A stretch of 64,000 nt of DNA from positions 1 through 64,000 of the IMG/VR virus record IMGVR_UViG_3300046820_002290. One strand, given 5' to 3'. The notes below the pieces were generated by a model, which saw only the letters and a program-made list of their open reading frames with translations, was not told the DNA's origin and did not search any database. Shown piece by piece: positions 16,349-64,000 of the stretch. Within the stretch, counting starts at the first letter, position 1. Every line of letters begins with the position of its first letter. The DNA is from a virus. A program made the position numbers and the translations under genes.

Positions 16349-19039
16349 GTGTTTCAAAAACGCATCCACGTCTTCAAAGCGGGTGATCAAACATCTGCTC
16401 AAGGAGTTCAGAGACACTTCTCTGACAAGGACTTGCAGCAGGTTGTTGACACCTATGATCCTTCGATCCATGAAGCCCCATTAGTCATTGGACACGCAGG
16501 TGACAATGATAGCATGCCGGCCTACGGGTGGATCAAAGGATTCTCCAAACAGGGCGGCAATCTATACGCGGACGTGGCCTTTACGGACACGGCCAAAGAC
16601 TTGGTGAAAGATGGGCATTACCGAAAGGTTTCTATTTCCTTCTATTCACCGGATAGCGCCATCAACCCGCACAAGGGGAAATGGAGCGCTCGTCATCTTG
16701 CTTTGCTGGGGGCCTCACCCCCAGCCGTAAAAGGTTTAGAGCCTTTTTCGTTTGCGGAGATGGAGGGAGTCTACGACTTTGCCGTGGCTCTTGCCCCCTC
16801 TGACATCTTTGATGAGGAGCTCGGCCCCACGCTCATAGTGGAAAAAAGCCCTTTAGAGATGCTCCGAGAGAAGCTCGATGAAGTCCGCCAGGACGTGTCG
16901 AGTGCGGTAAAAGAACTGCAAGGCAACCAACAAACACAACCGACCGAGGGACTGGAAGATGTTGCTACGTCATCCGTGACGGAACAACCTGAAGCTGCTC
17001 AAATGGCTAACCCAGATGCTCCACAATTCAAAGAAACCAGCAAAAACGTGGGTCGCGAAGGAACTGAAATCACTCAGCAGACGGCTGACCTCGAAGATCA
17101 ATTTCCGGAAGAGGAATTTATGGACCAAGGAAAAATCAGCCGGAAGCACGTCAAAGGTGCCCACGGCCAAGTTATGCAGGTCGTAGAAAACGTCTACGAC
17201 GAGGCTCACAAAGAGTCGACCGACGAACGCAAGGCAGCCGCCGACCGTGCCTTCGAGGCCAAGCGCATGAAGAAGGAAGGCAAGCCTGAAGAGGCTAAGG
17301 AAGTTAAGCGTTTCGGAAAAGAAGAGGACAAGCTCATCAAGGAGGCTAAGCATTCGGAAGATGAGGACATTTCCGATAGCGCTATGGCTCGCAAACACGG
17401 TGGCGATGGTGGCCCTGGCTCCGCTGACCACGCTGAAGATCCTACCGGACGCTATGAGACCGCCCGTTCCGCCGACAACGGCTATGTCGATCGCATGAAA
17501 ACCGGCAAAGCCGGTGCTGGATCTCAAACCGGCCGCTTCAAAACTGCTAAGAGCAGCGAGCAAGACACCGACCGGATGCACACTGCTGAAAATGGTGAGC
17601 AAGATGAAGACCGTATGCACACTGCTAAGGAGTCCGAGATGGCTTCCGATGGCGAAGAGCGTTGGGCTGGCCAAGCTGACAACTATGAGCGTGTAAACAA
17701 CATGGACCAGTATGACGCCGATGAAAAGAGCTACGGCGTAAATGCCCCTAAGACCTCCAAGGGAACTGACCCCTATGGTCGTCAAGAGACCGAAACCAAG
17801 ATTCCGGTGGAATCTGAAGAGATGCCCGATGATGAGGTGTTTGCAGTGCAAACAACCAATGTCATGAACGACAAGAACATGCGTGTGATTCGTCAGAAAT
17901 CTTCTGACGCTCGTGCCAAGTCTGTTGGCACCCATAACCTGCTGTATGCAGAGCCCCAAGCTGACGAAATGACCGGTGAAGACGGTGTTACTACCGCTCG
18001 CAAGTCAATGAAAGGCGACAAAATGGTTGAGCACGCTGAGTATGAAACTGGCGACATCTCCGGTGAAGCCAGCCTGGAGTCTCTTCGTGAAGAGATTGGC
18101 GACGGTAAGAAAGCTAAAGCCAAGCAACTTCAGCCAGGTGCCATGGACACCACTGACGAGCCTGGTGAAATTGTTGGGCCCTCTGGCGCCTACGCCGAAT
18201 CCTACAAGGGTGAGCCCAAGGCTAAGTCCAAGCAGCTGACTCCCGGTGCCCAGGACAGCGTTGATGATCCTGATCAAATCACCGGTCCTTCCGGTGTGTA
18301 TGGCGAAGCCTCCCTCGAGTCTCTCCGTGAGAATATTGGGGATGGCAAGAAGTCCAAGGCTCGCCAGCTGACCCCCGGCGCGATGGATGATTTGGACTCC
18401 CCTGCTGAAGTCAGCAAGAAGTCCGGTGGCGTTTACGCTGAAGAGCACGGAGAGAAGAAAGATCCTTACACCAAAACTGGTTTCGGCTCCACCTACGAAG
18501 AAGGTGAAGGTGATGACGGTGTGGATGAGGGTGAAGAGTCCTACAACGAGAACTACTCCGTCGACCATTGCGGTATGGAGTATGGCGGCATGGGGTCCAT
18601 GGGTCAAGCCCGTCCCATGGGTACTCAGCAAATGTACGAGGAGCTGATGTCCCTCAAGCAGAAGTACGCTGAGCTTGAGAACCGCAATCGCATGGAGAAG
18701 ATGAACTTCCGTCGGATGCAAATGGCGGAGGCAATCGGTCACATGTACACGGAAGGTCGCCTGACCGACGGCATCATGCCTGAGCAAGAGCTTCTCTCTT
18801 ACGTAGAAGGTCTTGAGTTCGGTACTCTCGAGTTCTCTGAGGGTGAAACTGCCGCTACCAAGCTGCTGACTCTGCTGAGCAAGCTGCCCCCGATGGTTTC
18901 CTTCGGTGAAGTTGCCGGTGGCACCTTCCAGTATGCCGAAGAGGACCTGGATCCTCACGCCAAGGCTCTCCGCATGGTGGAAGAGTCGGAAGGTAAGATG
19001 GACTACGTGGAAGCCCTTAAGAAAACCATGTTCTCCTGA
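16349..19039 (+). CDS. Mu-like prohead protease fused to a long scaffold
   Basis: PLVIGH, PAYGWI, YRKVSISF, HLALLGASPPAVKGL; about 750-aa charged extension; internal GAGGA-ATG at 17120. Confidence 0.88.
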   Translation: MFQKRIHVFKAGDQTSAQGVQRHFSDKDLQQVVDTYDPSIHEAPLVIGHAGDNDSMPAYGWIKGFSKQGGNLYADVAFTDTAKDLVKDGHYRKVSISFYSPDSAINPHKGKWSARHLALLGASPPAVKGLEPFSFAEMEGVYDFAVALAPSDIFDEELGPTLIVEKSPLEMLREKLDEVRQDVSSAVKELQGNQQTQPTEGLEDVATSSVTEQPEAAQMANPDAPQFKETSKNVGREGTEITQQTADLEDQFPEEEFMDQGKISRKHVKGAHGQVMQVVENVYDEAHKESTDERKAAADRAFEAKRMKKEGKPEEAKEVKRFGKEEDKLIKEAKHSEDEDISDSAMARKHGGDGGPGSADHAEDPTGRYETARSADNGYVDRMKTGKAGAGSQTGRFKTAKSSEQDTDRMHTAENGEQDEDRMHTAKESEMASDGEERWAGQADNYERVNNMDQYDADEKSYGVNAPKTSKGTDPYGRQETETKIPVESEEMPDDEVFAVQTTNVMNDKNMRVIRQKSSDARAKSVGTHNLLYAEPQADEMTGEDGVTTARKSMKGDKMVEHAEYETGDISGEASLESLREEIGDGKKAKAKQLQPGAMDTTDEPGEIVGPSGAYAESYKGEPKAKSKQLTPGAQDSVDDPDQITGPSGVYGEASLESLRENIGDGKKSKARQLTPGAMDDLDSPAEVSKKSGGVYAEEHGEKKDPYTKTGFGSTYEEGEGDDGVDEGEESYNENYSVDHCGMEYGGMGSMGQARPMGTQQMYEELMSLKQKYAELENRNRMEKMNFRRMQMAEAIGHMYTEGRLTDGIMPEQELLSYVEGLEFGTLEFSEGETAATKLLTLLSKLPPMVSFGEVAGGTFQYAEEDLDPHAKALRMVEESEGKMDYVEALKKTMFS
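18065..18442 (+). repeat. three ~40-aa repeats in the scaffold (KxKxxQLxPGAxD...GxY[AG]E)
   Basis: Visible in the translation; EASLESLRExIGDGKK occurs twice. Confidence 0.85.
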
Positions 19040-19046
19040 GGTAGTT

Positions 19047-19899: not shown

Positions 19900-20361
19900 A
19901 TGGCAACCAATGCCGCCCCCATTTACGGAAAGCAGTACATCCGTTACGCTGAGACCTGGGAAGCCCCCGTTAACGACCAAGCCGGTACTAAGGGTATCGT
20001 AGAAGTTGGCGAACTTCGTGCTGTGAGCTATGCCACCTGGGCTGGCCCCAACTACGCTGCCCCTGGCATCTACTTCACCGTTCAGCCCACCAACATTTGT
20101 GGTGTGAACCAGGCCTACATGCCCACCGCCCTGGCTCAGCCTTACACCGCTCGTCAATTGACTGTTGCTACCAGCGGCCTGCTGCTGATTGAAGTGGCCC
20201 CCGCTTCTGCCGCAATCGGTCTGAACACCCCCCTTCAGGTGAACAACCTGGGCCAAGCCACTGCCGCTGGCACCCCTGTAACCCTGGACGCCACCACTCC
20301 TTTGATCCGTGAGAACGTGACCATTGGCGGTCGTCGTCTCGTACTTGTCAGCTTCGCCTGA
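19900..20361 (+). CDS. capsid decoration/cement protein
   Basis: Small Ala/Thr/Gly-rich beta protein directly before the MCP (DUF2190-like position and pattern). Confidence 0.65.
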   Translation: MATNAAPIYGKQYIRYAETWEAPVNDQAGTKGIVEVGELRAVSYATWAGPNYAAPGIYFTVQPTNICGVNQAYMPTALAQPYTARQLTVATSGLLLIEVAPASAAIGLNTPLQVNNLGQATAAGTPVTLDATTPLIRENVTIGGRRLVLVSFA

Positions 20362-20454: not shown

Positions 20455-21507
20455 ATGATGAACCTGCAACAAACCTACGCAGGTGTAGATCCGATTCTGA
20501 CTACACTTGCCCAAGGTTTCATGCTTCCGGCGACTAATATCGCCAACTTTATTGCCCCCGTAGTAGATACCCCGACCCGTGCTGGCCGGATTCTGCGCTT
20601 CGGCAAGGAGCAGTTCGCCATCAACGACTTCCGTCGTGCATATGGCACCAACATTCCTTACGTTCAAAGCCGTTACGACTCGGAGCCCTATGCTCTCGAG
20701 CAAGAAGTGGTGGCTTGGGAACTGCCGGAAGAAGTAATTGAGAACGCCGGTGAAGGCCCTGCTCAGGTTGACCTGCGTGCGATTGAAACTCGCAACGCAA
20801 TGTCCCGCCTGATGAACGCCTATGAGTACACCGTATCTCAGGCTGTTACTGTAACCGCTACTTACAACCCTTACGAGCCCAACACTGGCGCTGGTACTCA
20901 GGATGGCCTGGGCTTCACCAGCTGGAGCACCTTCTCGGCTGCCTATACAACTGCCGCTGGTCCTTCGGCTTGGTCCTCCCTGACCTCCAACCCGATCGAA
21001 GACGTTCTGACCCTGAAGCGCTCTGTAGCTAACCAGGTCGGTATTCGCCCCAACTCCATGGTTGTTGGCACCGCTGTGTTCGACCAGCTGCTGACCAACC
21101 AGGCGATCCTTGAGCGTATCAAGTACACCACCGCCGACAGCATCGACACCGACATGCTGGCTCGCTACTTCGGTCTCGAGCGCGGTCTGCGTGTGGCTGA
21201 GGGTCGTTATCTGGCCACCGACGGTAGCCTGCAGCCTGTGTTCCCTGAGAACGGAATCCTGCTGTTCTACAGCCCCAATGGTCCTTCCGACTCCGTGATG
21301 CCTGCTGGTGGCGCTAACGCCGCTACGCCTGCCTTCGCTTACACCTACCAGCTGACCGGCACTCCTGCCGTTCGTCCTGAGTACTACATTCGTGAGCGTC
21401 GTGTGGTTCGTGCTGAGATTACCGTTGAGCGTATTGTTAACCTCGTTGGTCTTGGTGCTACTGGTTTTATCGGTTCTGGCGCGATGATCACCGACATCCT
21501 GTCCTGA
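20455..21507 (+). CDS. major capsid protein
   Basis: VDPILTTLAQG, FGKEQF, NPIEDV...GIRPNSMVVG, PAFAYTYQL; strong codon bias. Confidence 0.88.
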   Translation: MMNLQQTYAGVDPILTTLAQGFMLPATNIANFIAPVVDTPTRAGRILRFGKEQFAINDFRRAYGTNIPYVQSRYDSEPYALEQEVVAWELPEEVIENAGEGPAQVDLRAIETRNAMSRLMNAYEYTVSQAVTVTATYNPYEPNTGAGTQDGLGFTSWSTFSAAYTTAAGPSAWSSLTSNPIEDVLTLKRSVANQVGIRPNSMVVGTAVFDQLLTNQAILERIKYTTADSIDTDMLARYFGLERGLRVAEGRYLATDGSLQPVFPENGILLFYSPNGPSDSVMPAGGANAATPAFAYTYQLTGTPAVRPEYYIRERRVVRAEITVERIVNLVGLGATGFIGSGAMITDILS

Positions 21508-44704: not shown

Positions 44705-44893
44705 ATGGCTATTCAACCGAACCCTGACAACGTCCCCAGCATGATGCAAGAGGACTTCGGAACTAAAGTTTTGATTACGGATCTCGCCGCTGATCGTTAT
44801 CTAGAGCAAGCGGCCAAGCATGGCACCGAGCGCTACCGTAAATGGTGTGGCGGACGAGACGGATTTGATGATTTTGCGGAACGCTTACATTGA
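44705..44893 (+). CDS. hypothetical protein
   Basis: ATG 44705 (MAIQPNP...). Confidence 0.5.
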   Translation: MAIQPNPDNVPSMMQEDFGTKVLITDLAADRYLEQAAKHGTERYRKWCGGRDGFDDFAERLH

Positions 44894-44938
44894 TTGGCTC
44901 CTGGAAAAAGACGCCTGGTGGACGATGTAGTGGCAACC

Positions 44939-44946
44939 GGGTAAAA
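44939..44946 (+). promoter_or_regulatory. GGGTAAAA box
   Basis: Motif starts 32 nt before ATG 44971. Confidence 0.78.
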
Positions 44947-44970
44947 CTAAGGGTCGGTCGCAGTCCTCCA

Positions 44971-45789
44971 ATGCCCGATTCCATATTTCAAGGGGGTGAG
45001 TGCAATGTAGAACTCATTGGCAACAAAGTGTATGACCTACCCACCGATTGCTTCCAGTTACTTAACATGCTCACTTCCCGTGAAAAGCGCAAGAACCGTC
45101 GCGCTGAATCCGCTCAAATGCTAGAAAATTCTTACTCCAAGGGGATGGATGTTCAACCCCCCAAATTCTTGACATGGCGTCAGGAGGAGTTGTGGAATTG
45201 CTTCAAGAAGAATACCGTTACAATAGGCTTCGGGTCAGCCGGTACAGGCAAAACCCTTATAGCCCTACATTACGGTCTTTTCGGAATTGCTCAAGGGCAG
45301 TTTGATAAAGTTTACTACGTTCGTAGTGATGTTGGTGTGGAGTTCCAACGCGGGAGAGGTGCTTTACCTGGCGACCTGTCGGAGAAAATTGCTCCGCTGA
45401 TTGCCCCTGTCTTAGATAATCTACCCTGCATTATGCGTTCCCAAGGAGCAGCAGAATACCTCCTCAATAAAAAAATTATTGAGCCAGTTTTGCTTGAGGA
45501 CATTCGGGGAAGATCTCTTAATAATGCGTTCATCATTGTCGATGAAGCACAAAACTTCCTTCCCTCTCACGTGAAAACTTGCCTCTCCAGGGTGGGTAAA
45601 GATTCAAAAATTTGCCTCATCGGTGACACAAAACAGACCGACCTCGAAGTTTTCCGTCGGGAGAACGGTCTTGTTGATGCCATTCACCGCCTCCGCCAAC
45701 TTGCCGAAGTTGACGTTGTGGAGTTTCAAAAAGAAGACATTGTGCGCAACTCTGTAATTGCGCATATTCTAGATCGGTATGATGATTAA
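44971..45789 (+). CDS. phoH: PhoH-family ATPase
   Basis: GSAGTGKT, GALPGDLSEK, RGRSL..AFIIVDEAQN, GDTKQTD, DIVRN. Confidence 0.93.
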   Translation: MPDSIFQGGECNVELIGNKVYDLPTDCFQLLNMLTSREKRKNRRAESAQMLENSYSKGMDVQPPKFLTWRQEELWNCFKKNTVTIGFGSAGTGKTLIALHYGLFGIAQGQFDKVYYVRSDVGVEFQRGRGALPGDLSEKIAPLIAPVLDNLPCIMRSQGAAEYLLNKKIIEPVLLEDIRGRSLNNAFIIVDEAQNFLPSHVKTCLSRVGKDSKICLIGDTKQTDLEVFRRENGLVDAIHRLRQLAEVDVVEFQKEDIVRNSVIAHILDRYDD

Positions 45790-45804
45790 TCCCCGGAGGG
45801 AAGC

Positions 45805-46137
45805 ATGAGAAAGGACACACGCTTTAGGCGCCCTGAACGACAAGAAATTGAATCTCGGCTTCCCCAAGGGATTTTATCCGACCCGCAAGCGCTAGGTGTG
45901 TGGAATATGATGCTGAGGGGAGATGACCCCTCCGACATCGCCCACACCTATCGTTCTTTCCGAGACAGCTCCTATTGCACAGTTCCTCGTGAGCATCTCC
46001 GCTCGATGCGGGATACCATGATTACGGCAATGAGGGAAGCTAATCGCCAAGATCCGAAACCGCGCAAAGAAAAGAAAAAAGGAATCCATTACAGTGCAAT
46101 GCCAGACGGCTGGATGCCGCGTCGTACGTCAGCTTAA
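45805..46137 (+). CDS. hypothetical basic protein
   Basis: GGAGG RBS. Confidence 0.65.
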   Translation: MRKDTRFRRPERQEIESRLPQGILSDPQALGVWNMMLRGDDPSDIAHTYRSFRDSSYCTVPREHLRSMRDTMITAMREANRQDPKPRKEKKKGIHYSAMPDGWMPRRTSA

Positions 46138-46139
46138 TC

Positions 46140-46493
46140 ATGAACGCTAAGAAAGAAATCGAACGTCATCGTCTCCCGTGCGGGCCAATGGCGGTTTCAA
46201 TTGAAGGCGTCTGCCGTCGCCGTCTCCGTGACAGTATGGATGCGTTACTGGACAGGTTGACACAAGAGACTCACCCTGAAGGTGTAGATATAGATATTCT
46301 TGAAATGGACGAAGAGGTAGAAATTCCAGAACCGGAAGAACCGGAGGAAACCGATGAGGAAAAGAAACAACGCTTGATCCGGGAAGGAAAACTTAAAGTT
46401 GACGTTAAAAAAGAAGTGCAAAAGTACGAAGAGAAACTGTTCGGCAATTCGAAAATGCTGCAGAATGGATCGGGTAAGATTAACAAACGGTAA
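46140..46493 (+). CDS. hypothetical protein
   Basis: Tightly packed ORF. Confidence 0.65.
   Translation: MNAKKEIERHRLPCGPMAVSIEGVCRRRLRDSMDALLDRLTQETHPEGVDIDILEMDEEVEIPEPEEPEETDEEKKQRLIREGKLKVDVKKEVQKYEEKLFGNSKMLQNGSGKINKR
46472..46479 (+). promoter_or_regulatory. variant late box GGGTAAGA
   Basis: 31 nt before ATG 46503, the typical spacing. Confidence 0.55.
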
Positions 46494-46502
46494 CTAACCA
46501 AC

Positions 46503-46838
46503 ATGACTAACAGGATCGGTGGCGATTTTGACGCGGAAATCATTGAAGCATTTCGCGCAGCTTACGCCCAACAACTTGCGTCTCCTGATCAAGATGAGAT
46601 TGCTAACAACTCCGGCCTCCCCACCAACGTTGTAACAAACACTTCTCCCTGGATCGAGCATACCGGCTTGTGGAAATATCCCAGTGGCAAAGGGCCGGAG
46701 GAAGACCTCAAAACACCGTTCAATCCCAATGATTATCTCTCTGACGAGGTGCTGGACGGAGATGGCGAGATTGAAGAAATGAGTGACGAGGAAGTAATAA
46801 ACTTGGTGAACGAAATTACCGGGGACGAAGAGGAATAA
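46503..46838 (+). CDS. acidic protein with shared N-terminal leader (putative internal head protein)
   Basis: GDFDAEIIEAFRAAYAQ resembles the ORF 49232 leader. Confidence 0.6.
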   Translation: MTNRIGGDFDAEIIEAFRAAYAQQLASPDQDEIANNSGLPTNVVTNTSPWIEHTGLWKYPSGKGPEEDLKTPFNPNDYLSDEVLDGDGEIEEMSDEEVINLVNEITGDEEE

Positions 46839-46841
46839 TAA

Positions 46842-46849
46842 GGGTAAAA
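46842..46849 (+). promoter_or_regulatory. GGGTAAAA box
   Basis: Motif starts 31 nt before ATG 46873. Confidence 0.78.
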
Positions 46850-46872
46850 CCGATTAACCAAGCCGGTAAGCC

Positions 46873-47490
46873 ATGGCATCTCTACGGTCGCAGGAGACCT
46901 TACAAAAAGAATACGACCTACAGGCCGAGTACACCACTCGCATTAACCTGGAACTCCAGCGAGGCTCTATTCCTAACTACAAGGAAACCCTGGAAGATTA
47001 CGCTGTTTTTGCGAATGTTTTGCGCAAAGTGGCGCCCGAGAAAACCCTCGTTTTACTCCACCCTCGCCCAGAAATCATTCTGCAAGCCGAGAGCGAAGGG
47101 TACGAGGTGTCTTTGTTCATAAGTGGCCGGATTTGGCTCTTTAAGGTGAACAAATCGGTTCACTATATTCTGCCTCCGGAACTGGCTGCCGGGGCTGGTT
47201 TATTGCTTAAGCGTATGTGGGATGCCACTATCCCTTGTCTGCCAGAAGGTTTTATTATTCGTGGCAAGATTGATCGACGGGATCCGAAAGAAGAAACCGA
47301 AGCACGAACAAAAATCCAGCAAAATCTTGGGTTCTCTCTCCCTCAGATCGATGATTTTGTATATGGGGTAGTTCGTGATAAAAAACTCCACCCCATTACG
47401 CTGGAAGAAGTGATTACGTTGACGGGGGAAGTCCCCGATCACCTGGACCAAAAGTTTAATGTCCGTAAGATTGATTGGCCGGGAGCCTGA
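46873..47490 (+). CDS. hypothetical protein
   Basis: 205-aa ORF after the late box. Confidence 0.7.
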   Translation: MASLRSQETLQKEYDLQAEYTTRINLELQRGSIPNYKETLEDYAVFANVLRKVAPEKTLVLLHPRPEIILQAESEGYEVSLFISGRIWLFKVNKSVHYILPPELAAGAGLLLKRMWDATIPCLPEGFIIRGKIDRRDPKEETEARTKIQQNLGFSLPQIDDFVYGVVRDKKLHPITLEEVITLTGEVPDHLDQKFNVRKIDWPGA

Positions 47491-47492
47491 GC

Positions 47493-48206
47493 ATGTTTGG
47501 TTCTTCTTTTGATTTTAGTGGCGTAACCCTTCCGGGAGTCGGGGGAGGGATCAACGCGAGCAACGCTATCAGTGGCGAACAGCTCAAGAAAATGAACGAC
47601 TCCGGTAAAAAATGGCGTCCAGGCCCCGACGGTATGGGTATGTCTCATCACAATGAAAGCATTTTGAAGATGAATGCAGAGCATCGCGAAAAGCGTGCCA
47701 GTCTGGTAAACCGCGATTACAACGAGAACGCGGACAGCAAAGATGCGATGAAAGAAATTTTTGATCGCAAAAAGTCCAGAATGTCCTCTTTCAAAGAGAT
47801 GAAACGGGGCGAGTATGGATTCTCCGAGGGCGACTCCCAAGATAGCGAGCTTCTGAGCATGCCCCTCCCCTCCTTCAAAGATCACACCTGTAAGGGAGCT
47901 GGCTGCCCAATTTGCGCCAACAACAAGCAAAAGGATGCAGAGTACCGTGAGTGGTCAACAGAAAAGCGCAAGGCCCTTAAGGAAGGAAAAGTGAAGGGCT
48001 CTTTTGCAGGGCCAGACATGAGCTTCCCCATAGCTAGCCCGGTGGATGTGGCCGCCGCTTGGGCATCTGTGGGTCGTGCCTCTAACCCCCGCGCAATCAT
48101 GCGCAATATCATCCGAATCGCAAAACAAAATGATTGGGAGTCGGGTCTCCCGGAATCCGTCAAGAAACGTCTGGCAGCCGGAGAATCAGGTTTACCAACG
48201 GAGTGA
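47493..48206 (+). CDS. putative internal head protein with DUF6582-like C-terminal module
   Basis: STEKRKAL..FAGPDMSFPIAS..DVAAAW...IIRIAK; FSE and YRE motifs. Confidence 0.5.
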   Translation: MFGSSFDFSGVTLPGVGGGINASNAISGEQLKKMNDSGKKWRPGPDGMGMSHHNESILKMNAEHREKRASLVNRDYNENADSKDAMKEIFDRKKSRMSSFKEMKRGEYGFSEGDSQDSELLSMPLPSFKDHTCKGAGCPICANNKQKDAEYREWSTEKRKALKEGKVKGSFAGPDMSFPIASPVDVAAAWASVGRASNPRAIMRNIIRIAKQNDWESGLPESVKKRLAAGESGLPTE

Positions 48207-48209
48207 GCC

Positions 48210-48542
48210 ATGGGGATGGAGCTATTGGGGATTGTTGCATCATTTGCGACAATCGTTTCTGGTTTTGGCTGGCTCATGGAGCGGAGCGCCAAACGATCTG
48301 AACGAATGTTCATGGAAACCCACTCTGCTATCACCAAAGTCGAAACTAACGTTGAAAACATGGAGAAAGCTTTCACCGATTTAAGGGTGCTTCTACCAAC
48401 CAACTTCGTAACAAAGCAGGAGCTTCTGCAACATATCCAGGGTGAAGAAGCTTGGCATAACACAACATCTGAGCGCCTTCGCCAAATCCAAGAGGAAATC
48501 CTCGCCTTACGCTATCATTCGAACAACAATGGACATCACTGA
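48210..48542 (+). CDS. membrane-anchored coiled-coil protein (holin-like?)
   Basis: One N-terminal hydrophobic helix; LPTNFVTKQE. Confidence 0.5.
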   Translation: MGMELLGIVASFATIVSGFGWLMERSAKRSERMFMETHSAITKVETNVENMEKAFTDLRVLLPTNFVTKQELLQHIQGEEAWHNTTSERLRQIQEEILALRYHSNNNGHH

Positions 48543-49098
48543 ATACGACTGGGAACGTTTGGCAGGCTTAGGTTTTGCCGAAAAAGCTAAAGAAGGGCTG
48601 AAGTCCGCCTGCTGGAAAGGCTATGAAGCCATCGGGATGAAGACCAAAAACGGTCGTAAAGTTCCAAATTGCGTCAAAGTGAAATCAGACTCAGAGCACG
48701 GCGAGGGAGATATTGCCACTGCGGAAATGACTCCGAATTACTTGCCTAAGGAACCAGGAAAAGGCGACGAGAAAAACCCGCAGATGGGTGAGCAAAAGAT
48801 TCGTATGCCCCGTATGGAGGAGATTACTAAGTCTTCTAATCGCAATGGGCATCTGGCAATGGCTGCTGCTCCCAATTATGTAGAGGCCGAGGACTTCTTT
48901 GAAGGTATCAACTCCATGGAGCCGAATGCTGCTATGGCAATCAATCAGCTCCGGGTGATGCGGGAAAAGATTGATATTATGCTTGGCATCCTTTACCCGG
49001 ATGATAACATGGAGCCTTGGATGTCCACCAAACTGGCAATGAGTGCTCAAAACCTGGCCTCCGTAGCCGACTACATGCGTTTTGGAGCAGAAGCATGA
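48529..49098 (+). CDS. putative internal head protein with CWKGY...VPNCV module
   Basis: FAE-..ACWKGYEAIGMKTKNGRKVPNCVK..HGE; MA..QL...EPW..KL....L.SVADY module. Confidence 0.6.
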   Translation: MDITEYDWERLAGLGFAEKAKEGLKSACWKGYEAIGMKTKNGRKVPNCVKVKSDSEHGEGDIATAEMTPNYLPKEPGKGDEKNPQMGEQKIRMPRMEEITKSSNRNGHLAMAAAPNYVEAEDFFEGINSMEPNAAMAINQLRVMREKIDIMLGILYPDDNMEPWMSTKLAMSAQNLASVADYMRFGAEA

Positions 49099-49229
49099 AC
49101 CCACAACTTCACCATAAGTGGAATTCTGAGCGTAATCCTAGCCGAGGGTCAGATCGCGAAGGAGCTCAAATCCTTGAAGAAGACGTTGCCAAAAACAAAG
49201 TAATCTTAAAACAAGACAAGCCGAGATAA
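49095..49229 (+). CDS. small hypothetical protein
   Basis: ATGA overlap; fills the gap. Confidence 0.4.
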   Translation: MNPQLHHKWNSERNPSRGSDREGAQILEEDVAKNKVILKQDKPR

Positions 49230-49231
49230 CT

Positions 49232-49585
49232 ATGTTTGGAAATTTCCCAGAAGATCTTCTAGATCAGTTCAAGCGTGATTACGCCGAAAGGCAAGCAATG
49301 GCTATAGGCTACCCTCAGCAGTCTTTTGCAGACAAAAGCTCAATGCCCTGTAACAAGCCGCGTGCTGAGACTCACAACGGCAAATCTCACGTAGTGAAGG
49401 CATGTGAAGGCGGGAAAGAGCGGCTGATTCGCTTCGGTCAAGCCGGAGTCAAAGGGTCTCCTAAGAAAGAAGGGGAATCAGAATCTTACCGTAAGCGCCG
49501 TGAGTCCTTCAAAGCGAGACATTCCAAGAATATTGCTAAAGGAAAGATGAGCGCTGCTTACTGGGCTAATCGAGTCAAGTGGTAA
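49232..49585 (+). CDS. basic phage protein (DUF6321-like) with acidic leader
   Basis: KSHVVKA..LIRFGQ.G...RRESFKARH...SAAYWA..W. Confidence 0.65.
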   Translation: MFGNFPEDLLDQFKRDYAERQAMAIGYPQQSFADKSSMPCNKPRAETHNGKSHVVKACEGGKERLIRFGQAGVKGSPKKEGESESYRKRRESFKARHSKNIAKGKMSAAYWANRVKW

Positions 49586-49588
49586 CAA

Positions 49589-49596
49589 GGGTAAAA
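49589..49596 (+). promoter_or_regulatory. GGGTAAAA box
   Basis: Motif starts 33 nt before ATG 49622. Confidence 0.78.
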
Positions 49597-49621
49597 CCCA
49601 CTATAACGTCTCCGTCCGGCA

Positions 49622-50143
49622 ATGCGAAAGGACTCGATCAATAATGAGGCTATTGAAAAAGCCTATCTCATCTACAAAGAGCACGGTCATCAAATTGTTG
49701 ACTACGATTTCTCGCATCCGCCAACTGACTACAAGCGGAACACAGTCGAGGAGCCCGAAGTAAACAGCAAGCTGCGCGACGCTTTCAACGAGCTTCTTCC
49801 CGCAAACGTCATGCAGGGAGACAAGTACGAAGACCTGGAGAAGCAAGCTCATGCCCTCAATCTTCGTATCGACAAACAGCAAGACAAACTGCGTGTGTGC
49901 CGTATGCGCGGAAACTTCCAAGAGTTTCACCGCTGCATGCAGGAAATGCAGGAAATGATTAAAGAAAAAGAGCGTCTTGACGCCAAGATGGCAGTAGCAG
50001 CCCCTGGCGGCAATGCAGGACAAAAACAAATGGAAGATTACAATCGCACCCACGAGCAAGAAAGTTCCTATTCCGAGATGGAAGATCTCGGCGCTCAAAT
50101 TGCTGCTCTCGAGGAAATGCTGCAGGAATATCTCGAGCAATAG
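49622..50143 (+). CDS. helical/coiled-coil protein (putative internal head protein)
   Basis: Late box; leader-like N-terminus; YSE motif. Confidence 0.6.
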   Translation: MRKDSINNEAIEKAYLIYKEHGHQIVDYDFSHPPTDYKRNTVEEPEVNSKLRDAFNELLPANVMQGDKYEDLEKQAHALNLRIDKQQDKLRVCRMRGNFQEFHRCMQEMQEMIKEKERLDAKMAVAAPGGNAGQKQMEDYNRTHEQESSYSEMEDLGAQIAALEEMLQEYLEQ

Positions 50144-55741: not shown

Positions 55742-58700
55742 ATGGCCGGCATCCCCCCGTTTAATTCACAGGATCCAATCCCAAACACTCCCTTTTATAA
55801 CCCTGACGCAAACCGTTATAACCTGTCCTACCCAACAGGACAACTGGTCTTTGGTAGCTATTTGTTTGTAGACTACACGACTGGTAACGTATATATTTCC
55901 CCCAACCCTCCAAATAACGGTACTGTCCGGCAAGTTACTGCTGGTGCAGGTCTTGAGACATCCCCTGCCTCGGGTATCACAACTGCTGGAAGCATCGGTC
56001 TTAAGGCGATTTCAACTTTAACTCCGGGATCCTACACCTATCCGACCGTGGCGGTGAACGGATATGGTCAAATCACCCTGGCCGCTAACGGTAATCCTCC
56101 GCTGGTTACCCTGGTAGGCACCGCCCCCATTTACGTTACCGGTACAAACCCGATCCGCAACGTAGGGATCCTGCAAGCAAGTCTTGCTGCTCCCGGCGCA
56201 GTGCAGCTGACGGATGACGTATTTTCGACAAGTACAATCACGGCTCTTACCGCACTCCAGGGATACAGCCTGGGGTCCCAAATGTCGATCATCGGGTCTT
56301 CTTTGGCAGGGCAGTATTTTGCTGGTGCCATCAACCCTGCGACAGGGAATCTCACTTTCGTTTCCCCTGATGGATTAGCAGCGGGTGGTCTAACAGTTGG
56401 AAGTCCTCTTCCTGCTGCCTCAGCAACTTACAAGAAAGCCTACTTCACCATTACAGCAGACGGCACATACACACCCCCTGGCGGTGTTGCCACAGCGGTG
56501 GTAAAGAACGACCGTGTTTACTGCATCAACAACACTTGGCAGATTATTCTCTGCGGGCAGCGCCTTGTACCCGCATCCACCACGGTATTCGGCACAACAG
56601 TACTTTCTACCGCTGCTGAAGTCCAAGCTCTCACTGAACCCAACAAATCTGTTACTCCGGCTGGTCTCACCATTATGGTAGCTTCGGAGACCCAGGTAGG
56701 TTTTGTCGAGCTTGCTACCGACGCTGAGACTCAGGCATTTACCGACAACACTCGTGCAATCACGTCCTCAAACCTCGGAACTCTCAATGCAACTACCGCC
56801 ACTCGTGGACTTGTTCTTCTAAGTGACTCGGTTTCGGACCCGTCGGTGACAAGCGCACCGACCGCAAACGCTCTGAAGACATATGTTGATTCCTCGCTAG
56901 ATACTGCCACGGTAACAGCCAAAGGCGATCTGATTGTTGGTCTCGGATTTGAGACCCCCGGTATTCTCCCTCTGGGCGACAACGGTTCGGTTCTTACCGT
57001 TGACGATACCAAGCCCACGCAAGGAAGCATGGACTGGACTAGCCGTGATTCCCTTAACTCCTGGCCCGTAGGTTCTATTATTTGGCAACTGGCTACCACC
57101 CCCCTTGGCGGCGTGTGGATGGAGTGCGACGGTCGCCTTCTCGACGCAAGCATCACAGGGCCTTACTACAACCTTTACGAGCTAATCGGTACCACTTACA
57201 ACCAACCTGGCGACGCTGCTGGTTTCTTCCGAGTTCCTGATCTTCGCGGCATGTTCGTTCGTGGCTGGAGCGGTGCGGGCCCCAACCCCGTTCCAACGGC
57301 TCTCGACCCTGCTCGTACATTTGCCAGCACACAGAGCAGTGCGTACAAGCAGCACCTGCACACGGTCACTGATCCTGGTCACATTCACGACTTTGACCTC
57401 ATTCAGCACCAGCACACGAGCAATTCTTCGACTGTTCAACACCTTCACGGTGCAACTAGCAACCATTCCCACAATCTCGACGGATTTCCGAATGCGGAAG
57501 TTGTAGGAGATCAAGCGGGATATTACGATGGAAACGCACAGTGGGGGGCCCCTTCGGGACCAAATTCAAACAGCCCGACAACAGGTATTATTGTTAATAA
57601 CTCTCTTACCGGTATAACTCTTCAGAGTAAAGTTACAGGTATTACGGTTAACACCGTAACCACCGGCCTCACCGTTGACAACTCTCCCCCGACGGCTCCA
57701 GTACCTGACGAGACTCGCCCCTACAACATTGCCCTGCTCCCTGTAATCAAGTACGGCAACGTTCCTGCTGGCCCTACGCCGCCTACGCCAACACCCCCCG
57801 TTCCGACTTACGTCGTCAATACAACGCCTACGGCAGCTACCGAAAATACCGTTATCACGACGACCATCACAACAGCCAACGTGTCGAATGGCACTACCCT
57901 GTACTGGCAAATGTCAGGAACGGGGATCGTTGGCGCATTCTTCACCTCTGGCAGCTTAGTCGGAAGCACCACGGTTGCAGCAAATTCCGCCTCGTTCACT
58001 CAAACTCTGGCTGCCTCGCTGCCTGGACCGGGCCCTTACACCCTGTCTATCGACATTTACTCCGATTCCGCACGCTCCGTGCAGGTGGGTACCACCAGCC
58101 TTGTAATCGCGATTACACCTGGCGTAACCCCGAGTACACCTCAACTCGGTTCTTACATCGACCTTTGGCAGTATCGAAACACAGACGCTACCTATCCGTT
58201 CACAGCAAACAGCGGCCTCAACCCTGTTGTTCGTGCAAGTAACATCTCTGCCAATGCTCTGTCCTTGTTGAACAAGTTCTACCTGCTGGCTGAAGTTCAA
58301 ATCAATGGACTTGACAGCAAGCTTTACTTCGGTGCCCCAACAGGGTTCCCTGCCGCTGCGCAAGTTCTCAACGCCGCTGGCACAGACTGGAACACCAACA
58401 CCGGTAGTGCTAACGGCACCTATGTGAGCCCCACAAACCCTGATTACACCTACTCGGCTTGGGCTCTCAAGAACACGAATGCCTACATGGATACCCAGTC
58501 GGTCTCTAAGGCTAACTTTATGTTGTCAATCGGCGGTTACAACCTGTCCAATAACATGGACCTGGCAGGTGCAAGTGTAGCCCAGGCAAATGCCGCCGCT
58601 GCTCAAATCGTTACCCTGATGAACCTTTGCGGTGCCAAAGGTGTCGACATTGACTACGAACCGGTGGGCATCACTTGTAACCCTGCGCGTATGGCAACGC

Positions 58701-59398
58701 TGATGCAAGCCATTTACAACGCTGTCAAGGCTTACAACGCTTCCTACGAGGTTCATCTGACTCTGATTCCGTCCCTGTCGGTTGCTGACCCTGACCTGAA
58801 GATTGCTACCGCAGTCGCCTGCCAAGCTTACGCCGACCAAATCAACGTTATGACTTACGATGATCCTAGTAATCTCAGTCAGCCTCTGTATGAACCCGGT
58901 GGAGTCACTGTTTACAACCATACTGGCGTAGCCCGCTCGGTTCAAAGTATTCAGTGGTTCATCGACGCCGGTGTCTCCCGCTCGAAGCTTGGTATGGGTA
59001 TTGCCCAGTACGGCCGCAATACCTCCAATCCTTCGGCTGCATTCAACGCTGCTAACCCAGTGCCTTACAGCCAGATTGTTGCCTCGGCAAATGCCGCTGG
59101 TCAAATCACAAACTCCTTCCCTCTTGGCCGCTACTTCGGTGCCGTCAAGATTCAAAACCCTGCCCCAACAAATCAAACCGACTACTACAGCCCCACTTAC
59201 ACAGCCCTCTGGGGCTTCGACTCGGTGGACACCATCCAAGACAAGGTCGAGTCCGCTTCGGATATGGGTCTCCGTGCCGTGTTTACCTGGCAGATCTCCA
59301 ACGACTACGCCGATCCCGCATCGCCGAATCCCCCCGGAGACGCACGAGCCAACTTCGCTCTGCTTGCCGCCGCCCGCGACGCCATCACGAATCTGTAA
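55742..59398 (+). CDS. tail fibre with collar domain and C-terminal GH18 chitinase-like glycosidase
   Basis: Collar PVGSII..CDG..FRVPDLRGMFVRG; GH18 LSIGG, GVDIDYE, INVMTYD, KLGMGIAQYGR, FTWQISND. Confidence 0.85.
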   Translation: MAGIPPFNSQDPIPNTPFYNPDANRYNLSYPTGQLVFGSYLFVDYTTGNVYISPNPPNNGTVRQVTAGAGLETSPASGITTAGSIGLKAISTLTPGSYTYPTVAVNGYGQITLAANGNPPLVTLVGTAPIYVTGTNPIRNVGILQASLAAPGAVQLTDDVFSTSTITALTALQGYSLGSQMSIIGSSLAGQYFAGAINPATGNLTFVSPDGLAAGGLTVGSPLPAASATYKKAYFTITADGTYTPPGGVATAVVKNDRVYCINNTWQIILCGQRLVPASTTVFGTTVLSTAAEVQALTEPNKSVTPAGLTIMVASETQVGFVELATDAETQAFTDNTRAITSSNLGTLNATTATRGLVLLSDSVSDPSVTSAPTANALKTYVDSSLDTATVTAKGDLIVGLGFETPGILPLGDNGSVLTVDDTKPTQGSMDWTSRDSLNSWPVGSIIWQLATTPLGGVWMECDGRLLDASITGPYYNLYELIGTTYNQPGDAAGFFRVPDLRGMFVRGWSGAGPNPVPTALDPARTFASTQSSAYKQHLHTVTDPGHIHDFDLIQHQHTSNSSTVQHLHGATSNHSHNLDGFPNAEVVGDQAGYYDGNAQWGAPSGPNSNSPTTGIIVNNSLTGITLQSKVTGITVNTVTTGLTVDNSPPTAPVPDETRPYNIALLPVIKYGNVPAGPTPPTPTPPVPTYVVNTTPTAATENTVITTTITTANVSNGTTLYWQMSGTGIVGAFFTSGSLVGSTTVAANSASFTQTLAASLPGPGPYTLSIDIYSDSARSVQVGTTSLVIAITPGVTPSTPQLGSYIDLWQYRNTDATYPFTANSGLNPVVRASNISANALSLLNKFYLLAEVQINGLDSKLYFGAPTGFPAAAQVLNAAGTDWNTNTGSANGTYVSPTNPDYTYSAWALKNTNAYMDTQSVSKANFMLSIGGYNLSNNMDLAGASVAQANAAAAQIVTLMNLCGAKGVDIDYEPVGITCNPARMATLMQAIYNAVKAYNASYEVHLTLIPSLSVADPDLKIATAVACQAYADQINVMTYDDPSNLSQPLYEPGGVTVYNHTGVARSVQSIQWFIDAGVSRSKLGMGIAQYGRNTSNPSAAFNAANPVPYSQIVASANAAGQITNSFPLGRYFGAVKIQNPAPTNQTDYYSPTYTALWGFDSVDTIQDKVESASDMGLRAVFTWQISNDYADPASPNPPGDARANFALLAAARDAITNL

Positions 59399-59401
59399 AC
59401 C

Positions 59402-59409
59402 GGGTAAAA
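59402..59409 (+). promoter_or_regulatory. GGGTAAAA box
   Basis: Motif starts 42 nt before ATG 59444. Confidence 0.78.
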
Positions 59410-59443
59410 CCCCTTAACTTGCCTCCTCAACGATATAACGAAC

Positions 59444-61462
59444 ATGGCCATCGTTCCGTTTAACCCTAATAACGAAGTCATCCCGATTCCCAATAACCCG
59501 TTTTATTGGCCCCAAGAATCGGCGTTCCAGACCCCGCAAGGTCCCCTTATCTTTGGGGCAGGCTTCTCCGTTGATTACAATACCGGTGTCGTAAGTGTTG
59601 ATCCGGCACCTCCGGCGTCCACGGGTACGGTAACTTCTGTTACCGCTGGCGCTGGCTTGATCACAAGTCCTTTCGCCGGTATTACAACAGTCGGTCAAGT
59701 TTCGCTCGCAACTGTCCCCGGCGTTGTTCCCGGAACTTACACTTATGCGGCGTTTAGTGTTGACTCTTATGGCCGCATCACATCGGCTGCAAGTGGAGTA
59801 GCTCCCGTTCAAACACTAAGTGGAATCTACCCAATCAACGTTACTGGAGCTGCGCCCTCCCTTACTGTATCAATCGCTGCCGGAACTACCGCAAACGCGG
59901 GTGCCGTTCAGCTGGTTGACAACGTAAGCACCCCGTCCAACACACTCGCCCTGACTGCCAACCAAGGGTACCTTCTTCAAAACCAAATCAACGCAATTGC
60001 TGGAACAGCCAACATCCAATTCCTGGCTGGTACTCTCAACGCTGCCACAGGTAATGTTGTTACTGCGACTGCCGAAGGTAACACCGCAGGCATCTTGGCT
60101 GGTAGTCCCCTGCCTGCCGCAAGCGGCACAAACATCGGTGCTACTCTCCTGATTACAACTGCCGCCACCTACACACCTCCTGGCGGTACTGCGGTTAGCG
60201 TAGTTCCTGGCGACCAACTCCTGAGCGACGGCACAAACTGGGTTTACTTCCAGACCGGTTTCCGTGCTCCTTACGCCACCACCACCACTGCCGGCATCGT
60301 TCGTTACGCCACTGTTGCTGAGACACAGGCACTGGCCGATAATACCATTGCCGTGACACCTTTTGGTCTGTCCGGAATGGTTGCCTCGACCACTCAGCGT
60401 GGTTTCGTTGAGTTGGCTGACGCTGCAGAGACTCAACTGCTTGCCGACACCACTCGTGCTGTCACCCCTGCAGGACTCGGTACTCTTCAGGCTACCACAA
60501 CTTCTCGCGGTATCGTTCAACTGAATGATACACTGACAAGCACTTCGACCACGCTGGCCCCAACTGCTCGTGCGCTCAAACAAGCTTTCGATGAGTCGAT
60601 TCACAATAACATTATTCAAGCTAACGGCGATCTAATCGTTGGCCAAGCTGCTGCAGACCCTCAAATCCTTCCAAAGGGTTCGAACGGTCAGGTTCTCACG
60701 GTAGACAATACCGCTTCCTTGGGTGTATCTTGGCAGACGCCAATCGCCCCTGAGTCCACTCCGGTTGGCTCGGTGTGCTGGTTCACAACTGATGATCCTG
60801 CCAAGCTCCCCGTGGGCTGGTTGGTTGCAGATGGCTCTTCTTACGGTGTTGACTCTTCCAACCCCTACTATCCGCTGTACCAAGTAATCGGTACAACTTT
60901 CACCCCTCCCGCCGATCCTCCGGGAACTTTCCGTGTCCCCGATCTTCGCGGTCAGTTCATTCGTGGTTGGAACGACGCCGGCACTCAAGGTCCTGGAAAC
61001 CTGGATCCCGGTCGTGCTTTTGGCTCCTGTCAAGCAGACGCCTATCAACAGCACTCACACTCGGTAACTGATCCTGGCCACATCCACGCGATTACTGATC
61101 CGGGCCACAACCACCTTATTACTGATCCTGGGCATACGCACACTGTTACCGATCCCGGTCATAGCCACCAGTTCAATGTCCCCAACTCCGAAGTTGTGGG
61201 CGATCAAGCTGGCTTCTACGACGGTAACAACAAGCGAGGGAACAGAGGTGCGGGCACTACAAACAGCAGTGCAAATGTTTCTATCAACAACGCAACAACA
61301 GGCGTGACAATCAACACCGCTCTCACCGGTATCACCCAAACAATCATCTGCACCACTGGACTCACAGTTAATAACTCTCCCGCCAGCGCTCCGGTTCCCA
61401 ACGAGACTCGTCCTACAAACTTCTCACTACTCCCTATCATCAAGTACCGGGATCCTGTCTGA
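59444..61462 (+). CDS. tail fibre with collar domain and HxH needle
   Basis: Paralog of ORF 55742 residues ~1-680; FRVPDLRGQFIRGW, ETRPTNFSLLPIIK. Confidence 0.85.
   Translation: MAIVPFNPNNEVIPIPNNPFYWPQESAFQTPQGPLIFGAGFSVDYNTGVVSVDPAPPASTGTVTSVTAGAGLITSPFAGITTVGQVSLATVPGVVPGTYTYAAFSVDSYGRITSAASGVAPVQTLSGIYPINVTGAAPSLTVSIAAGTTANAGAVQLVDNVSTPSNTLALTANQGYLLQNQINAIAGTANIQFLAGTLNAATGNVVTATAEGNTAGILAGSPLPAASGTNIGATLLITTAATYTPPGGTAVSVVPGDQLLSDGTNWVYFQTGFRAPYATTTTAGIVRYATVAETQALADNTIAVTPFGLSGMVASTTQRGFVELADAAETQLLADTTRAVTPAGLGTLQATTTSRGIVQLNDTLTSTSTTLAPTARALKQAFDESIHNNIIQANGDLIVGQAAADPQILPKGSNGQVLTVDNTASLGVSWQTPIAPESTPVGSVCWFTTDDPAKLPVGWLVADGSSYGVDSSNPYYPLYQVIGTTFTPPADPPGTFRVPDLRGQFIRGWNDAGTQGPGNLDPGRAFGSCQADAYQQHSHSVTDPGHIHAITDPGHNHLITDPGHTHTVTDPGHSHQFNVPNSEVVGDQAGFYDGNNKRGNRGAGTTNSSANVSINNATTGVTINTALTGITQTIICTTGLTVNNSPASAPVPNETRPTNFSLLPIIKYRDPV
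61052..61168 (+). repeat. 27-nt tandem repeats encoding HxHxxTDPG
   Basis: Five HxH motifs. Confidence 0.85.
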
Positions 61463-61483
61463 TTAGCCCGAACCCCAAACCAC

Positions 61484-61491
61484 GGGTAAAA
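61484..61491 (+). promoter_or_regulatory. GGGTAAAA box
   Basis: Motif starts 37 nt before ATG 61521. Confidence 0.78.
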
Positions 61492-61520
61492 CCAGTCAAG
61501 CTGAAGATTTGGTCGTCACT

Positions 61521-63839: not shown

Positions 63840-63861
63840 GTGCAAATAAAATAAGAAAGAC

Positions 63862-63885
63862 GGGGAGGGAAACCTCCCCATTTTT
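63862..63885 (+). terminator. intrinsic terminator
   Basis: GGGGAGG-GAAA-CCTCCCC-A-TTTTT. Confidence 0.8.
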
Positions 63886-63897
63886 GTAGATAGCAAC

Positions 63898-63905
63898 GGG
63901 TAAAA
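63898..63905 (+). promoter_or_regulatory. GGGTAAAA box
   Basis: Motif starts 33 nt before ATG 63931. Confidence 0.78.
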
Positions 63906-63930
63906 CCAGTTATACGAACTTGTGGTGACT

Positions 63931-64000
63931 ATGGCGCTTCCGATTCGCCCGAACAACCCAAACATCCCCATTCCAAACAGCACGTTTTCTTCTCCGTTAA
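63931..64000 (+). CDS. next fibre paralog, truncated by the window edge
   Basis: MALPIRPNNPNIPIPNSTFSSPL shares the PIPNxxF anchor. Confidence 0.7.
   Translation, partial: MALPIRPNNPNIPIPNSTFSSPL

Follow-up and report, generated by a model that had tools for sequence, protein, structure and literature searches.

A portable N-terminal leader on unrelated small proteins of a cyanophage lineage: a candidate head-targeting tag

The IMG/VR record IMGVR_UViG_3300046820_002290 is a viral contig of 91,972 bp in which essentially all genes lie on the + strand, and its first 64 kb (64,000 nucleotides), designated as the window, is the stretch analyzed here. The contig belongs to a cyanomyovirus that is distantly related to Synechococcus phage S-CBWM1. 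In this nearest isolate, the large terminase is 56% identical to that of the window phage, and the gene order TerL, PhoH, small open reading frames (ORFs) and giant protein of more than 1500 amino acids (aa) is common to both phages. In the window, a hypervariable island lies between PhoH and a 1644-aa giant fibre or baseplate gene, and two otherwise unrelated proteins of this island begin with the same short helix, which we call the leader. An earlier note on this DNA had singled out island genes starting at 46503, 47493, 48529, 49232 and 49622 as a candidate system for loading, cleaving and injecting capsid cargo. These starts are fixed by orthologues in L004, L014, L178 and L181 (collected loci are denoted by L numbers), so that the genes and coordinates given in that note were right. 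In this study we examined the leader and its carriers, which are named by their start positions, along with the protease-scaffold of the phage and the possible role of the leader in head assembly.

The canonical leader-bearing protein is a 117-aa protein encoded at 49232..49585 (+), and its leader comprises aa 1–20 (nt 49232–49291), ending in Y-A-E-R. The second carrier, a 111-aa protein encoded at 46503..46838 (+), has the leader at aa 5–23 (nt 46515–46571), ending in Y-A-Q. The consensus, M-[FW]-G-x-F-[PS]-x-x-h-L-x-x-F-x-x-x-Y-A-E-[RK], describes an acidic amphipathic N-terminal helix of ~20 residues with an isoelectric point (pI) of ~4.3, and G3, F5 and Y17 are invariant in an alignment of eight leader sequences. 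Downstream of the leader, 46503 has the conserved motifs GLPT...SPW...LWKYP and then a tail that is acidic and has a helix at its C-terminus; the pI of the protein type is 4.1. This protein is the orthologue of S-CBWM1 gp108. Its AlphaFold2 model is mostly disordered, with helices at 11–26 and 95–106 and a mean predicted local distance difference test (pLDDT) score of 59, and because of this low confidence we read the model only as "mostly disordered with two helices".

The claim that 46503 and 49232 have an N-terminal helix in common was confirmed. After obvious paralogues, the two proteins form the top pair of N-termini in the genome, ranking 24th among 3916 pairs with a score of 39 over 20 residues. 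A hidden Markov model (HMM) of the leader, built from residues 2–21 of 110 database homologues of 49232 with 46503 left out of training, matched only 49232 and 46503 among the genome's 89 proteins (46503 aa 7–23, E 8.5e-4; next E 0.26), and hhalign aligned the N-termini of the 49232 and 46503 families with a P value of 4e-5. The pairwise match alone is moderate (~21 bits; E 0.23 with 23,019 ORFs searched), but it is reinforced by the 46503-type orthologues in L181 and L170, which carry the helix at the exact N-terminus and in register with the canonical leader. The shared leader is real and far beyond chance.

The leader is also found on many other proteins. When an eight-sequence leader profile was run against 1.84 billion representative proteins, all 24 matches with E <= 1e-3 started at residue 1–8. 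These matches represent at least seven payload classes: the 49232 type, the 46503 type, GKPCG-knuckle proteins of 106–382 aa, a QKDC.PGE class, a K-rich class, proteins with a C.RPDG module, and one further type. In IMG/VR, a degenerate DNA pattern covering only the leader hit 30 sites, all at ORF starts; 28 of them precede 49232-type domains of two subfamilies, and the other two precede unrelated payloads adjoining a 49232-type gene. These two are a K-rich protein of 105 aa, found in L178, and a protein of 160 aa in L181 that has a GKPCG...C knuckle. A scan of all collected loci added two payloads, namely a C.PGE..VFG.C protein that has the leader in L188 and is leaderless in L178, and a family starting M-L-G-[HS]-F-S-E-E-A-L before a C.RPDG..YGT.G.C module. 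Similarity among leader-bearing proteins with unrelated payloads was limited to residues 1–20 in blastp alignments, and canonical leaders on such payloads scored E values of 1e-9 to 1e-12. The 49232 family itself has more than 8000 homologues, and in most of the close ones the leader comes first, a linker of 0–15 residues second and the conserved domain last. A scan of the whole genome of S-CBWM1, the only cultured relative found, detected no leader-bearing protein besides gp108. The HMM check proposed in the earlier note has thus been run: in IMG/VR and among the representative proteins, the leader is confined to N-termini and to one phage lineage, with variable payloads behind it. It is a portable N-terminal module on at least seven unrelated payloads.

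Conservation of the leader was seen at the level of residues. Its wobble positions are scrambled, with four Gly, six Leu and four Ala codons in use, and residue 20, which the search pattern left free, is R or K in 28/28 distinct leader sequences. Two leaders within one genome are identical at only 39–41 of 60 nucleotides (65–68%) and differ by six synonymous changes. These features bear on the possibility that the similarity has no function at the protein level and reflects either chance or a cassette boundary that works at the DNA level by promoting recombination in this hyperplastic region. Such an explanation would suit the clearly recombinogenic island and the weakness of the 46503–49232 match taken alone, but it does not account for the strong scores of leaders on unrelated payloads or for residues kept while synonymous sites drifted. 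Because the wobble positions are scrambled, the residues kept and the DNA identity within one genome low, recent gene conversion and a purely DNA-level boundary are excluded. We regard this explanation as highly improbable and already largely refuted; the leader is selected at the protein level.

In 49232, the leader is followed by a flexible linker (aa 21–36), which ends in a second motif of the form [FY]x[DE]K, and by a basic payload domain (aa 37–117; phrog_7595). The payload has a pI of 10.4, and C40, C58 and H97 are invariant and H53 is near-invariant. The AlphaFold2 model has a helix at 7–24, a linker with pLDDT below 50 at 26–31 and a confident alpha/beta domain at 40–117. The domain has no fold match in the PDB (Foldseek best E 0.87; VIA wide search best Z 2.5); against viral models it matches uncharacterised proteins, one of which is fused to XkdF and some of which are several hundred to 1393 residues long. 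Its previous description as DUF6321-like was not upheld, as 21 family members had no Pfam match up to E 10 apart from weak Protoglobin and DUF5754 noise. The domain occurs without the leader in SIO1-like podoviruses, roseophages, cyanosiphoviruses, pelagiphages and most IMG/VR matches. It is also carried by 963 longer proteins, nearly always as the last ~80 residues, where the modules ahead of it include DUF5661, DUF5872, PcfJ and Zeta-toxin-like kinases and, in one protein or more, the CWxGY module of 48529 (described below). None of the payloads could be assigned a function by searches of Pfam, PHROGs and Atlas.

Payloads behind Y-A-E-[RK] are basic, with pI values of 9.5–11.2, in all classes but one, while the 46503 type is acidic. 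Considering this charge difference between leader and payload, the leader might be a pro-peptide that masks a basic nucleic-acid-binding payload intramolecularly until it is removed, with no role in capsid addressing, and the junction motif would fit a protease site. However, the acidic 46503-type proteins have the same helix and no basic payload to mask, and the linker is long and variable. Masking as the sole function is therefore unlikely in our estimation, and masking and targeting can coexist.

The 189-aa protein encoded at 48529..49098 (+) carries a second class of leader at aa 1–18 (nt 48529–48582), of the form ..YDW.RL..LGF-A-E, followed by a CWxGY...VPNC mini-module at ~aa 19–59 that ends in H-G-E. 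The start and the motifs are kept in 24 orthologues, in which the leader ends in [FWY]-x-E and the H-[GSA]-E after the CW module is conserved, and PHROG matches of 48529 start directly after its leader. Since the 48529-type helix is also found on three other payloads (two proteins in L186 and one in L182), we consider it a second leader class of the same design.

Three further N-termini were considered as leaders and rejected. The helical 173-aa protein encoded at 49622..50143 (+) has a first segment of 20 aa ending in Y-K-E-H, and in its orthologues the N-terminal helix ends in Y-A-E-[KHR] or Y-S-E-R (family form [YF][KSA]E[HRK]). The weaker version of the leader that the earlier note saw here is unsupported: the best hhalign alignment with the leader is in the expected register but has a P value of 0.18, the relevant N-terminal pairs rank only 727 and 1293 of 3916, and this N-terminus almost always stays with the same payload. 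Thus, 49622 is a candidate member only. The 237-aa protein encoded at 47493..48206 (+) is a conserved island protein without a leader (pI 9.1), with a CxxC pair and orthologues in L004, L014, L178 and L181; its start, M-F-G-S-S-F, looked leader-like but is not kept in L181 and has no HMM match. In the head module, a 153-aa protein encoded at 19900..20361 (+), flanked by the MuF-like and major capsid genes, has 18 initial residues ending in Y-A-E, an ending that is F-A-E in S-CBWM1 gp172. Despite this ending, its N-terminus matched the leader only at aa 16–18, with an E value of 18.

According to the earlier note, motifs of the aromatic-x-Glu type bracket the payload modules. The motifs are present and conserved among orthologues, as F[AS]E and [YF]RE (the latter within [YF]REW) in 47493, [YF][SG]E in 49622, [FY]x[DE]K in 49232 and FAE...H[GSA]E in 48529. 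Counts show no enrichment of the stricter form [FYW][AGS]E, which each of these proteins has once, whereas the looser [FYW]xE is enriched in 49622 (5 vs 1.6 expected, P 0.003) and in 47493 (4 vs 1.25, P 0.013). The DUF6582-like domain assigned to 47493 is a weak lead: the C-terminal region has a weak resemblance to DUF6582, but the window protein has no Pfam match, one orthologue reached E 0.12 with 13 bits (cut-off 27), and an Atlas search placed a DUF6582 cluster at rank 6 (score 0.81).

The gene content of the island differs among the window, L004, L014, L178, L181 and S-CBWM1, and extra leader-bearing genes are present in L178 and L181. Between PhoH and 45805, the window lacks the 500–600-aa CxxGKxCG-knuckle protein that follows PhoH in L004, L014, L178 and S-CBWM1 (gp106). 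Upstream of 46503 are two conserved small genes, 45805–46137 and 46140–46493 (both +), the first of which is the orthologue of S-CBWM1 gp107. An apparently genome-specific insertion at 46873..47490 (+) encodes a 205-aa protein with no family match; it has its own GGGTAAAA box at 46842 and is absent from L004, L014, L178 and L181. At 48210..48542 (+), overlapping the start of 48529, lies a gene whose small product combines an N-terminal transmembrane helix with a coiled coil; it has weak PHROG matches and orthologues in L014 and L181. Such a conserved protein is unexpected among head-internal proteins.

The sequence GGGTAAAA is present 20 times (2.6 expected), exclusively on the + strand, and precedes the portal, scaffold, sheath and fibre genes. 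Three boxes in the island, at 44939, 46842 and 49589 (span 44939..49596, +), divide it into units. The placement of the boxes agrees with a putative co-expression of the island with the structural genes. The long PhoH ORF (44890–45789) contains the box at 44939, and its orthologues start ~27 codons later; the true PhoH start is probably near 44971.

Several large proteins of the lineage that otherwise differ have a Cys knuckle, C-x-x-G-K-x-C-G-x-x-C-I...C, close to their N-terminus, and the same knuckle follows the leader directly in some small proteins. The large carriers are S-CBWM1 gp106 (L001:15107–16669), gp174 (L197:9899–11485), which is annotated as a virion structural protein, the proteins at L004:5651–7480 and L014:5725–7239, and two proteins in L178, one of which is kinase-like. 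This knuckle may be another shared module of the lineage. Another group of similar N-termini, already pointed out by the earlier note, is an array of fibre-like paralogues that extends from 55742 to 64000 in the window and on to ~72657 of the genome. Its members have a common N-terminal PIPNxPFY anchor and occupy the top of the genome's list of similar N-termini.

The head module begins with a Mu-type portal gene at 14742–16313 (Portal_Mu, 1e-70), followed at 16349..19039 (+) by the gene for an 896-aa protease-scaffold fusion (phrog_976, E 3e-58), in which a Mu gpI-type protease occupies ~aa 1–150 and precedes a long acidic scaffold. The fusion had no Pfam match at E <= 0.01; in tblastn searches, its N-terminal ~145 residues reach 36–49% identity with the Mu I equivalents of BcepMu, B3, RcapMu and phiE255. 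The designation "Mu-type protease" in the earlier note was therefore right. Portal_Mu adjoins the fusion, and a MuF-like gene lies downstream. The ORF of the MuF-like gene (18906–19811; phrog_24776 match), the product of which has a Cys-rich ...CRC...CRC end, overlaps the end of the scaffold gene, and this putative MuF-type minor head gene probably starts near 19044 rather than 18906. An E-type major capsid protein is encoded at 20455–21507. With regard to genome size, CheckV completeness values of related fragments (contigs G001–G015, behind L166–L191) were, e.g., 40% for 89 kb and 61% for 136 kb. Because of these values, related genomes are estimated at ~200 kb or more, and therefore the 92-kb record containing the window is probably incomplete.

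The motif aromatic-small-Glu, [FYW][AGS]E, is concentrated in the scaffold. We counted it in five divergent Mu-type protease-scaffolds (window 16349–19039; L197:5995–7437; L206:2429–4255; L207:2480–4192; L208:2489–3619). The scaffold of the window phage has nine copies vs 1.8 expected (Y[AG]E, 6 vs 0.64), and the counts are 6 vs 1.2 in S-CBWM1, 5 vs 1.3–1.4 in S-TIM5, 7 vs 1.0–1.1 in Nodularia phage 2AV2 and 7 vs 0.6 in BcepMu gpI, giving a total of 34 vs 5.9 expected, an approximately 6-fold enrichment. Control motifs were flat in the same five proteins ([FYW][AGS]D, 6 vs 3.2; [ILVM][AGS]E, 13 vs 17.6; the reversed motif, 4 vs 5.7; [FYW][AGS] followed by neither D nor E, 37 vs 36). The enrichment in all five together with the flat controls makes the motif a specific, family-wide feature of Mu-type protease-scaffolds. 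Conservation of the motifs among 26 orthologues of the window scaffold is uninformative because of their mean identity of 82%. On the strength of these counts, we propose that the nine motifs in the window scaffold are cleavage sites, and we put forward aromatic-small-Glu as a cleavage code that the Mu gpI family as a whole may use. The 49232-type leader ends in this same motif, so that the claim of a leader ending in the motif that punctuates the scaffold stands for the 49232 type; the 46503-type leader ends in Y-A-Q or Y-E-M-Q.

In the best explanation available, which we consider somewhat probable, the leader is a prohead-targeting tag that resembles the capsid-targeting sequence (CTS) of phage T4 and is cleaved off, in a system that relies on a Mu-type protease. 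We infer the steps of docking, cleavage and injection and the presence of the proteins in the virion. Through the tag, a protein would dock on the scaffold core while the prohead assembles, and the protease fused to the scaffold would cut after the Glu of aromatic-small-Glu, the same motif that it would use to chop the scaffold itself. Cutting would free small, mostly basic and probably DNA-associated proteins, which would stay alongside the DNA inside the head and, when a host is infected, may pass into it. The acidic, disordered 46503-type protein would be the oldest carrier of the helix, and 48529 would have a second leader of the same design. Cleavage after Glu is a reasonable proposal because T4 gp21, phiKZ gp175 and SPN3US gp245 cut after Glu in three-residue motifs and take off targeting peptides of 10–20 aa (PMC5694885, PMC12991175), although those proteases belong to another family.

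Several observations weigh against this interpretation. The 46503-type leader, with its ending in Y-A-Q or Y-E-M-Q, does not have the proposed scissile Glu-[RK]. S-CBWM1 gp108, the sole leader carrier in that phage, is recorded as a hypothetical protein, and a different protein bears the label of virion structural protein. The island is not purely structural, since PhoH and a membrane protein are also encoded there, as are kinase-like and HNH-like proteins in relatives. Of 15 leader-bearing contigs, nine are long enough to judge, and all nine encode this protease-scaffold with 50–92% identity; because all leader-bearing contigs are relatives, this co-occurrence is not independent evidence and shows the restriction to one lineage. 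Throughout the genome, a motif [FYW][AGSTK]E at N-terminal positions 12–21 is found in four proteins vs 1.5 expected, which is marginal (P 0.07), and three of the four are encoded by consecutive genes. Finally, a literature search on the cleavage specificity of Mu gpI or Mu-type head proteases found nothing.

Some of these points would be expected from the main rival explanation, in which the helix serves docking or oligomerisation in a task performed outside the virion, binding a common phage or host partner or forming one complex, e.g., between the basic payloads and the acidic 46503, with neither cleavage nor packaging. Amphipathic helices that are flexibly tethered serve as generic interaction modules, the carriers include both acidic and basic proteins, and the non-structural genes of the island and the 46503-type ending without Glu-[RK] are in line with such a role. 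This explanation, however, leaves unexplained the strict N-terminal position of the leader, seen in 24/24 library matches, the invariant Y-A-E-[RK] junction at which similarity stops, and the match between the leader ending and the motif enriched in the scaffold. We thus find a docking helix of this kind doubtful, and prefer to regard the leader as a putative prohead-targeting tag.

The earlier note had compared the system with the T4 internal proteins, and the resemblance in logic is real without any relation in sequence. In T4, the CTS peptides are 10–20 aa long, they are removed by a cut after Glu, and nothing else is conserved across the varied set of internal proteins (PMC3012670, PMC5694885). 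The leader of the window phage is comparable to the gp21-removed CTS of IPI–III and other T4 head proteins in that a short N-terminal peptide is the sole conserved part of diverse, fast-evolving small proteins, the locus is variable, and the peptide ends at a short x-x-Glu motif, a protease site in T4 and a candidate one here, that is also present in core and scaffold proteins (PMC3012670, PMC5694885, PMC12991175). The leader differs in having no sequence similarity to the T4 CTS and in its motif, which is aromatic-small-Glu here and I/L-x-Glu in T4. In addition, the protease is of the Mu gpI type and fused to the scaffold, rather than a member of the gp21 family, the head module is Mu-/lambda-like (Portal_Mu, MuF-like gene and E-type capsid protein), and packaging and cleavage are here proposed steps.

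Other phages provide further parallels. In giant phages (phiKZ gp175, 201phi2-1 and SPN3US gp245), many proteins of the head bear propeptides at the N-terminus that are cut after Glu at a three-residue motif, and paralogues can have identical N-termini (PMC5694885). Their propeptides are mostly longer than 100 aa and are cut at A/S/G-x-E by a protease of another family, whereas the leader described here has 20 aa and precedes unrelated payloads. In P1, the N-terminal 30 aa of DarB are sufficient for sending a protein into the capsid (PMC9024508), but this signal is known from one 250-kDa protein only, does not serve a whole family as a portable leader and has no sequence relation to the leader described here. 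Polyvalent proteins of phages and conjugative elements have been proposed to be delivered with DNA (Iyer et al. 2017; PMC5512222). The phrog_7595 domain and the CWxGY module likewise occur as beads in multi-module phage proteins elsewhere, together with Zeta-toxin-like, PcfJ, DUF5661 and DUF5872 modules. Polyvalent proteins contain 2–15 effector domains per polypeptide; in the window, the modules are encoded by separate genes for proteins of 111–237 aa, and only homologues elsewhere are fused. No MuF fusion was seen. The island looks like a split version of polyvalent proteins in which each piece would need its own targeting tag.

Short amphipathic helices on flexible linkers also direct unrelated cargo into encapsulin shells (cargo-loading peptides) and bacterial microcompartments (encapsulation peptides). 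These peptides stay on their cargo, operate in cellular compartments and have no sequence relation to the leader. The concept of a head-targeting tag has precedents in T4, P1 and giant phages; new here are the leader itself, the family of the protease, the motif proposed and the group of phages.

A broader proposal, which we advance tentatively as a possibility, is that Mu-type proteases read an aromatic-small-Glu code and that one abundant lineage of aquatic cyanophages made a 20-aa helix, along with the 48529 class, into a loading tag for a changing set of basic DNA-binding effectors and an acidic disordered partner. If this is true, CTS-like targeting would have a second origin, independent of that in T4, and phages with Mu-type heads would possess a ready-made protein-delivery tag. 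Experiments have demonstrated leader-directed loading of heads in only a handful of systems, namely T4, P1 and the phiKZ-like giant phages, and the present case offers a leader clearly defined by its sequence, with numerous natural swaps of payload, in a metagenome-common lineage of freshwater or marine cyanophages. It also provides a prediction of aromatic-small-Glu specificity for the entire Mu-type protease-scaffold family. If confirmed, the system would show what these cyanophages bring into the cell besides DNA and would supply a short tag for packaging foreign proteins into Mu-type-head capsids.

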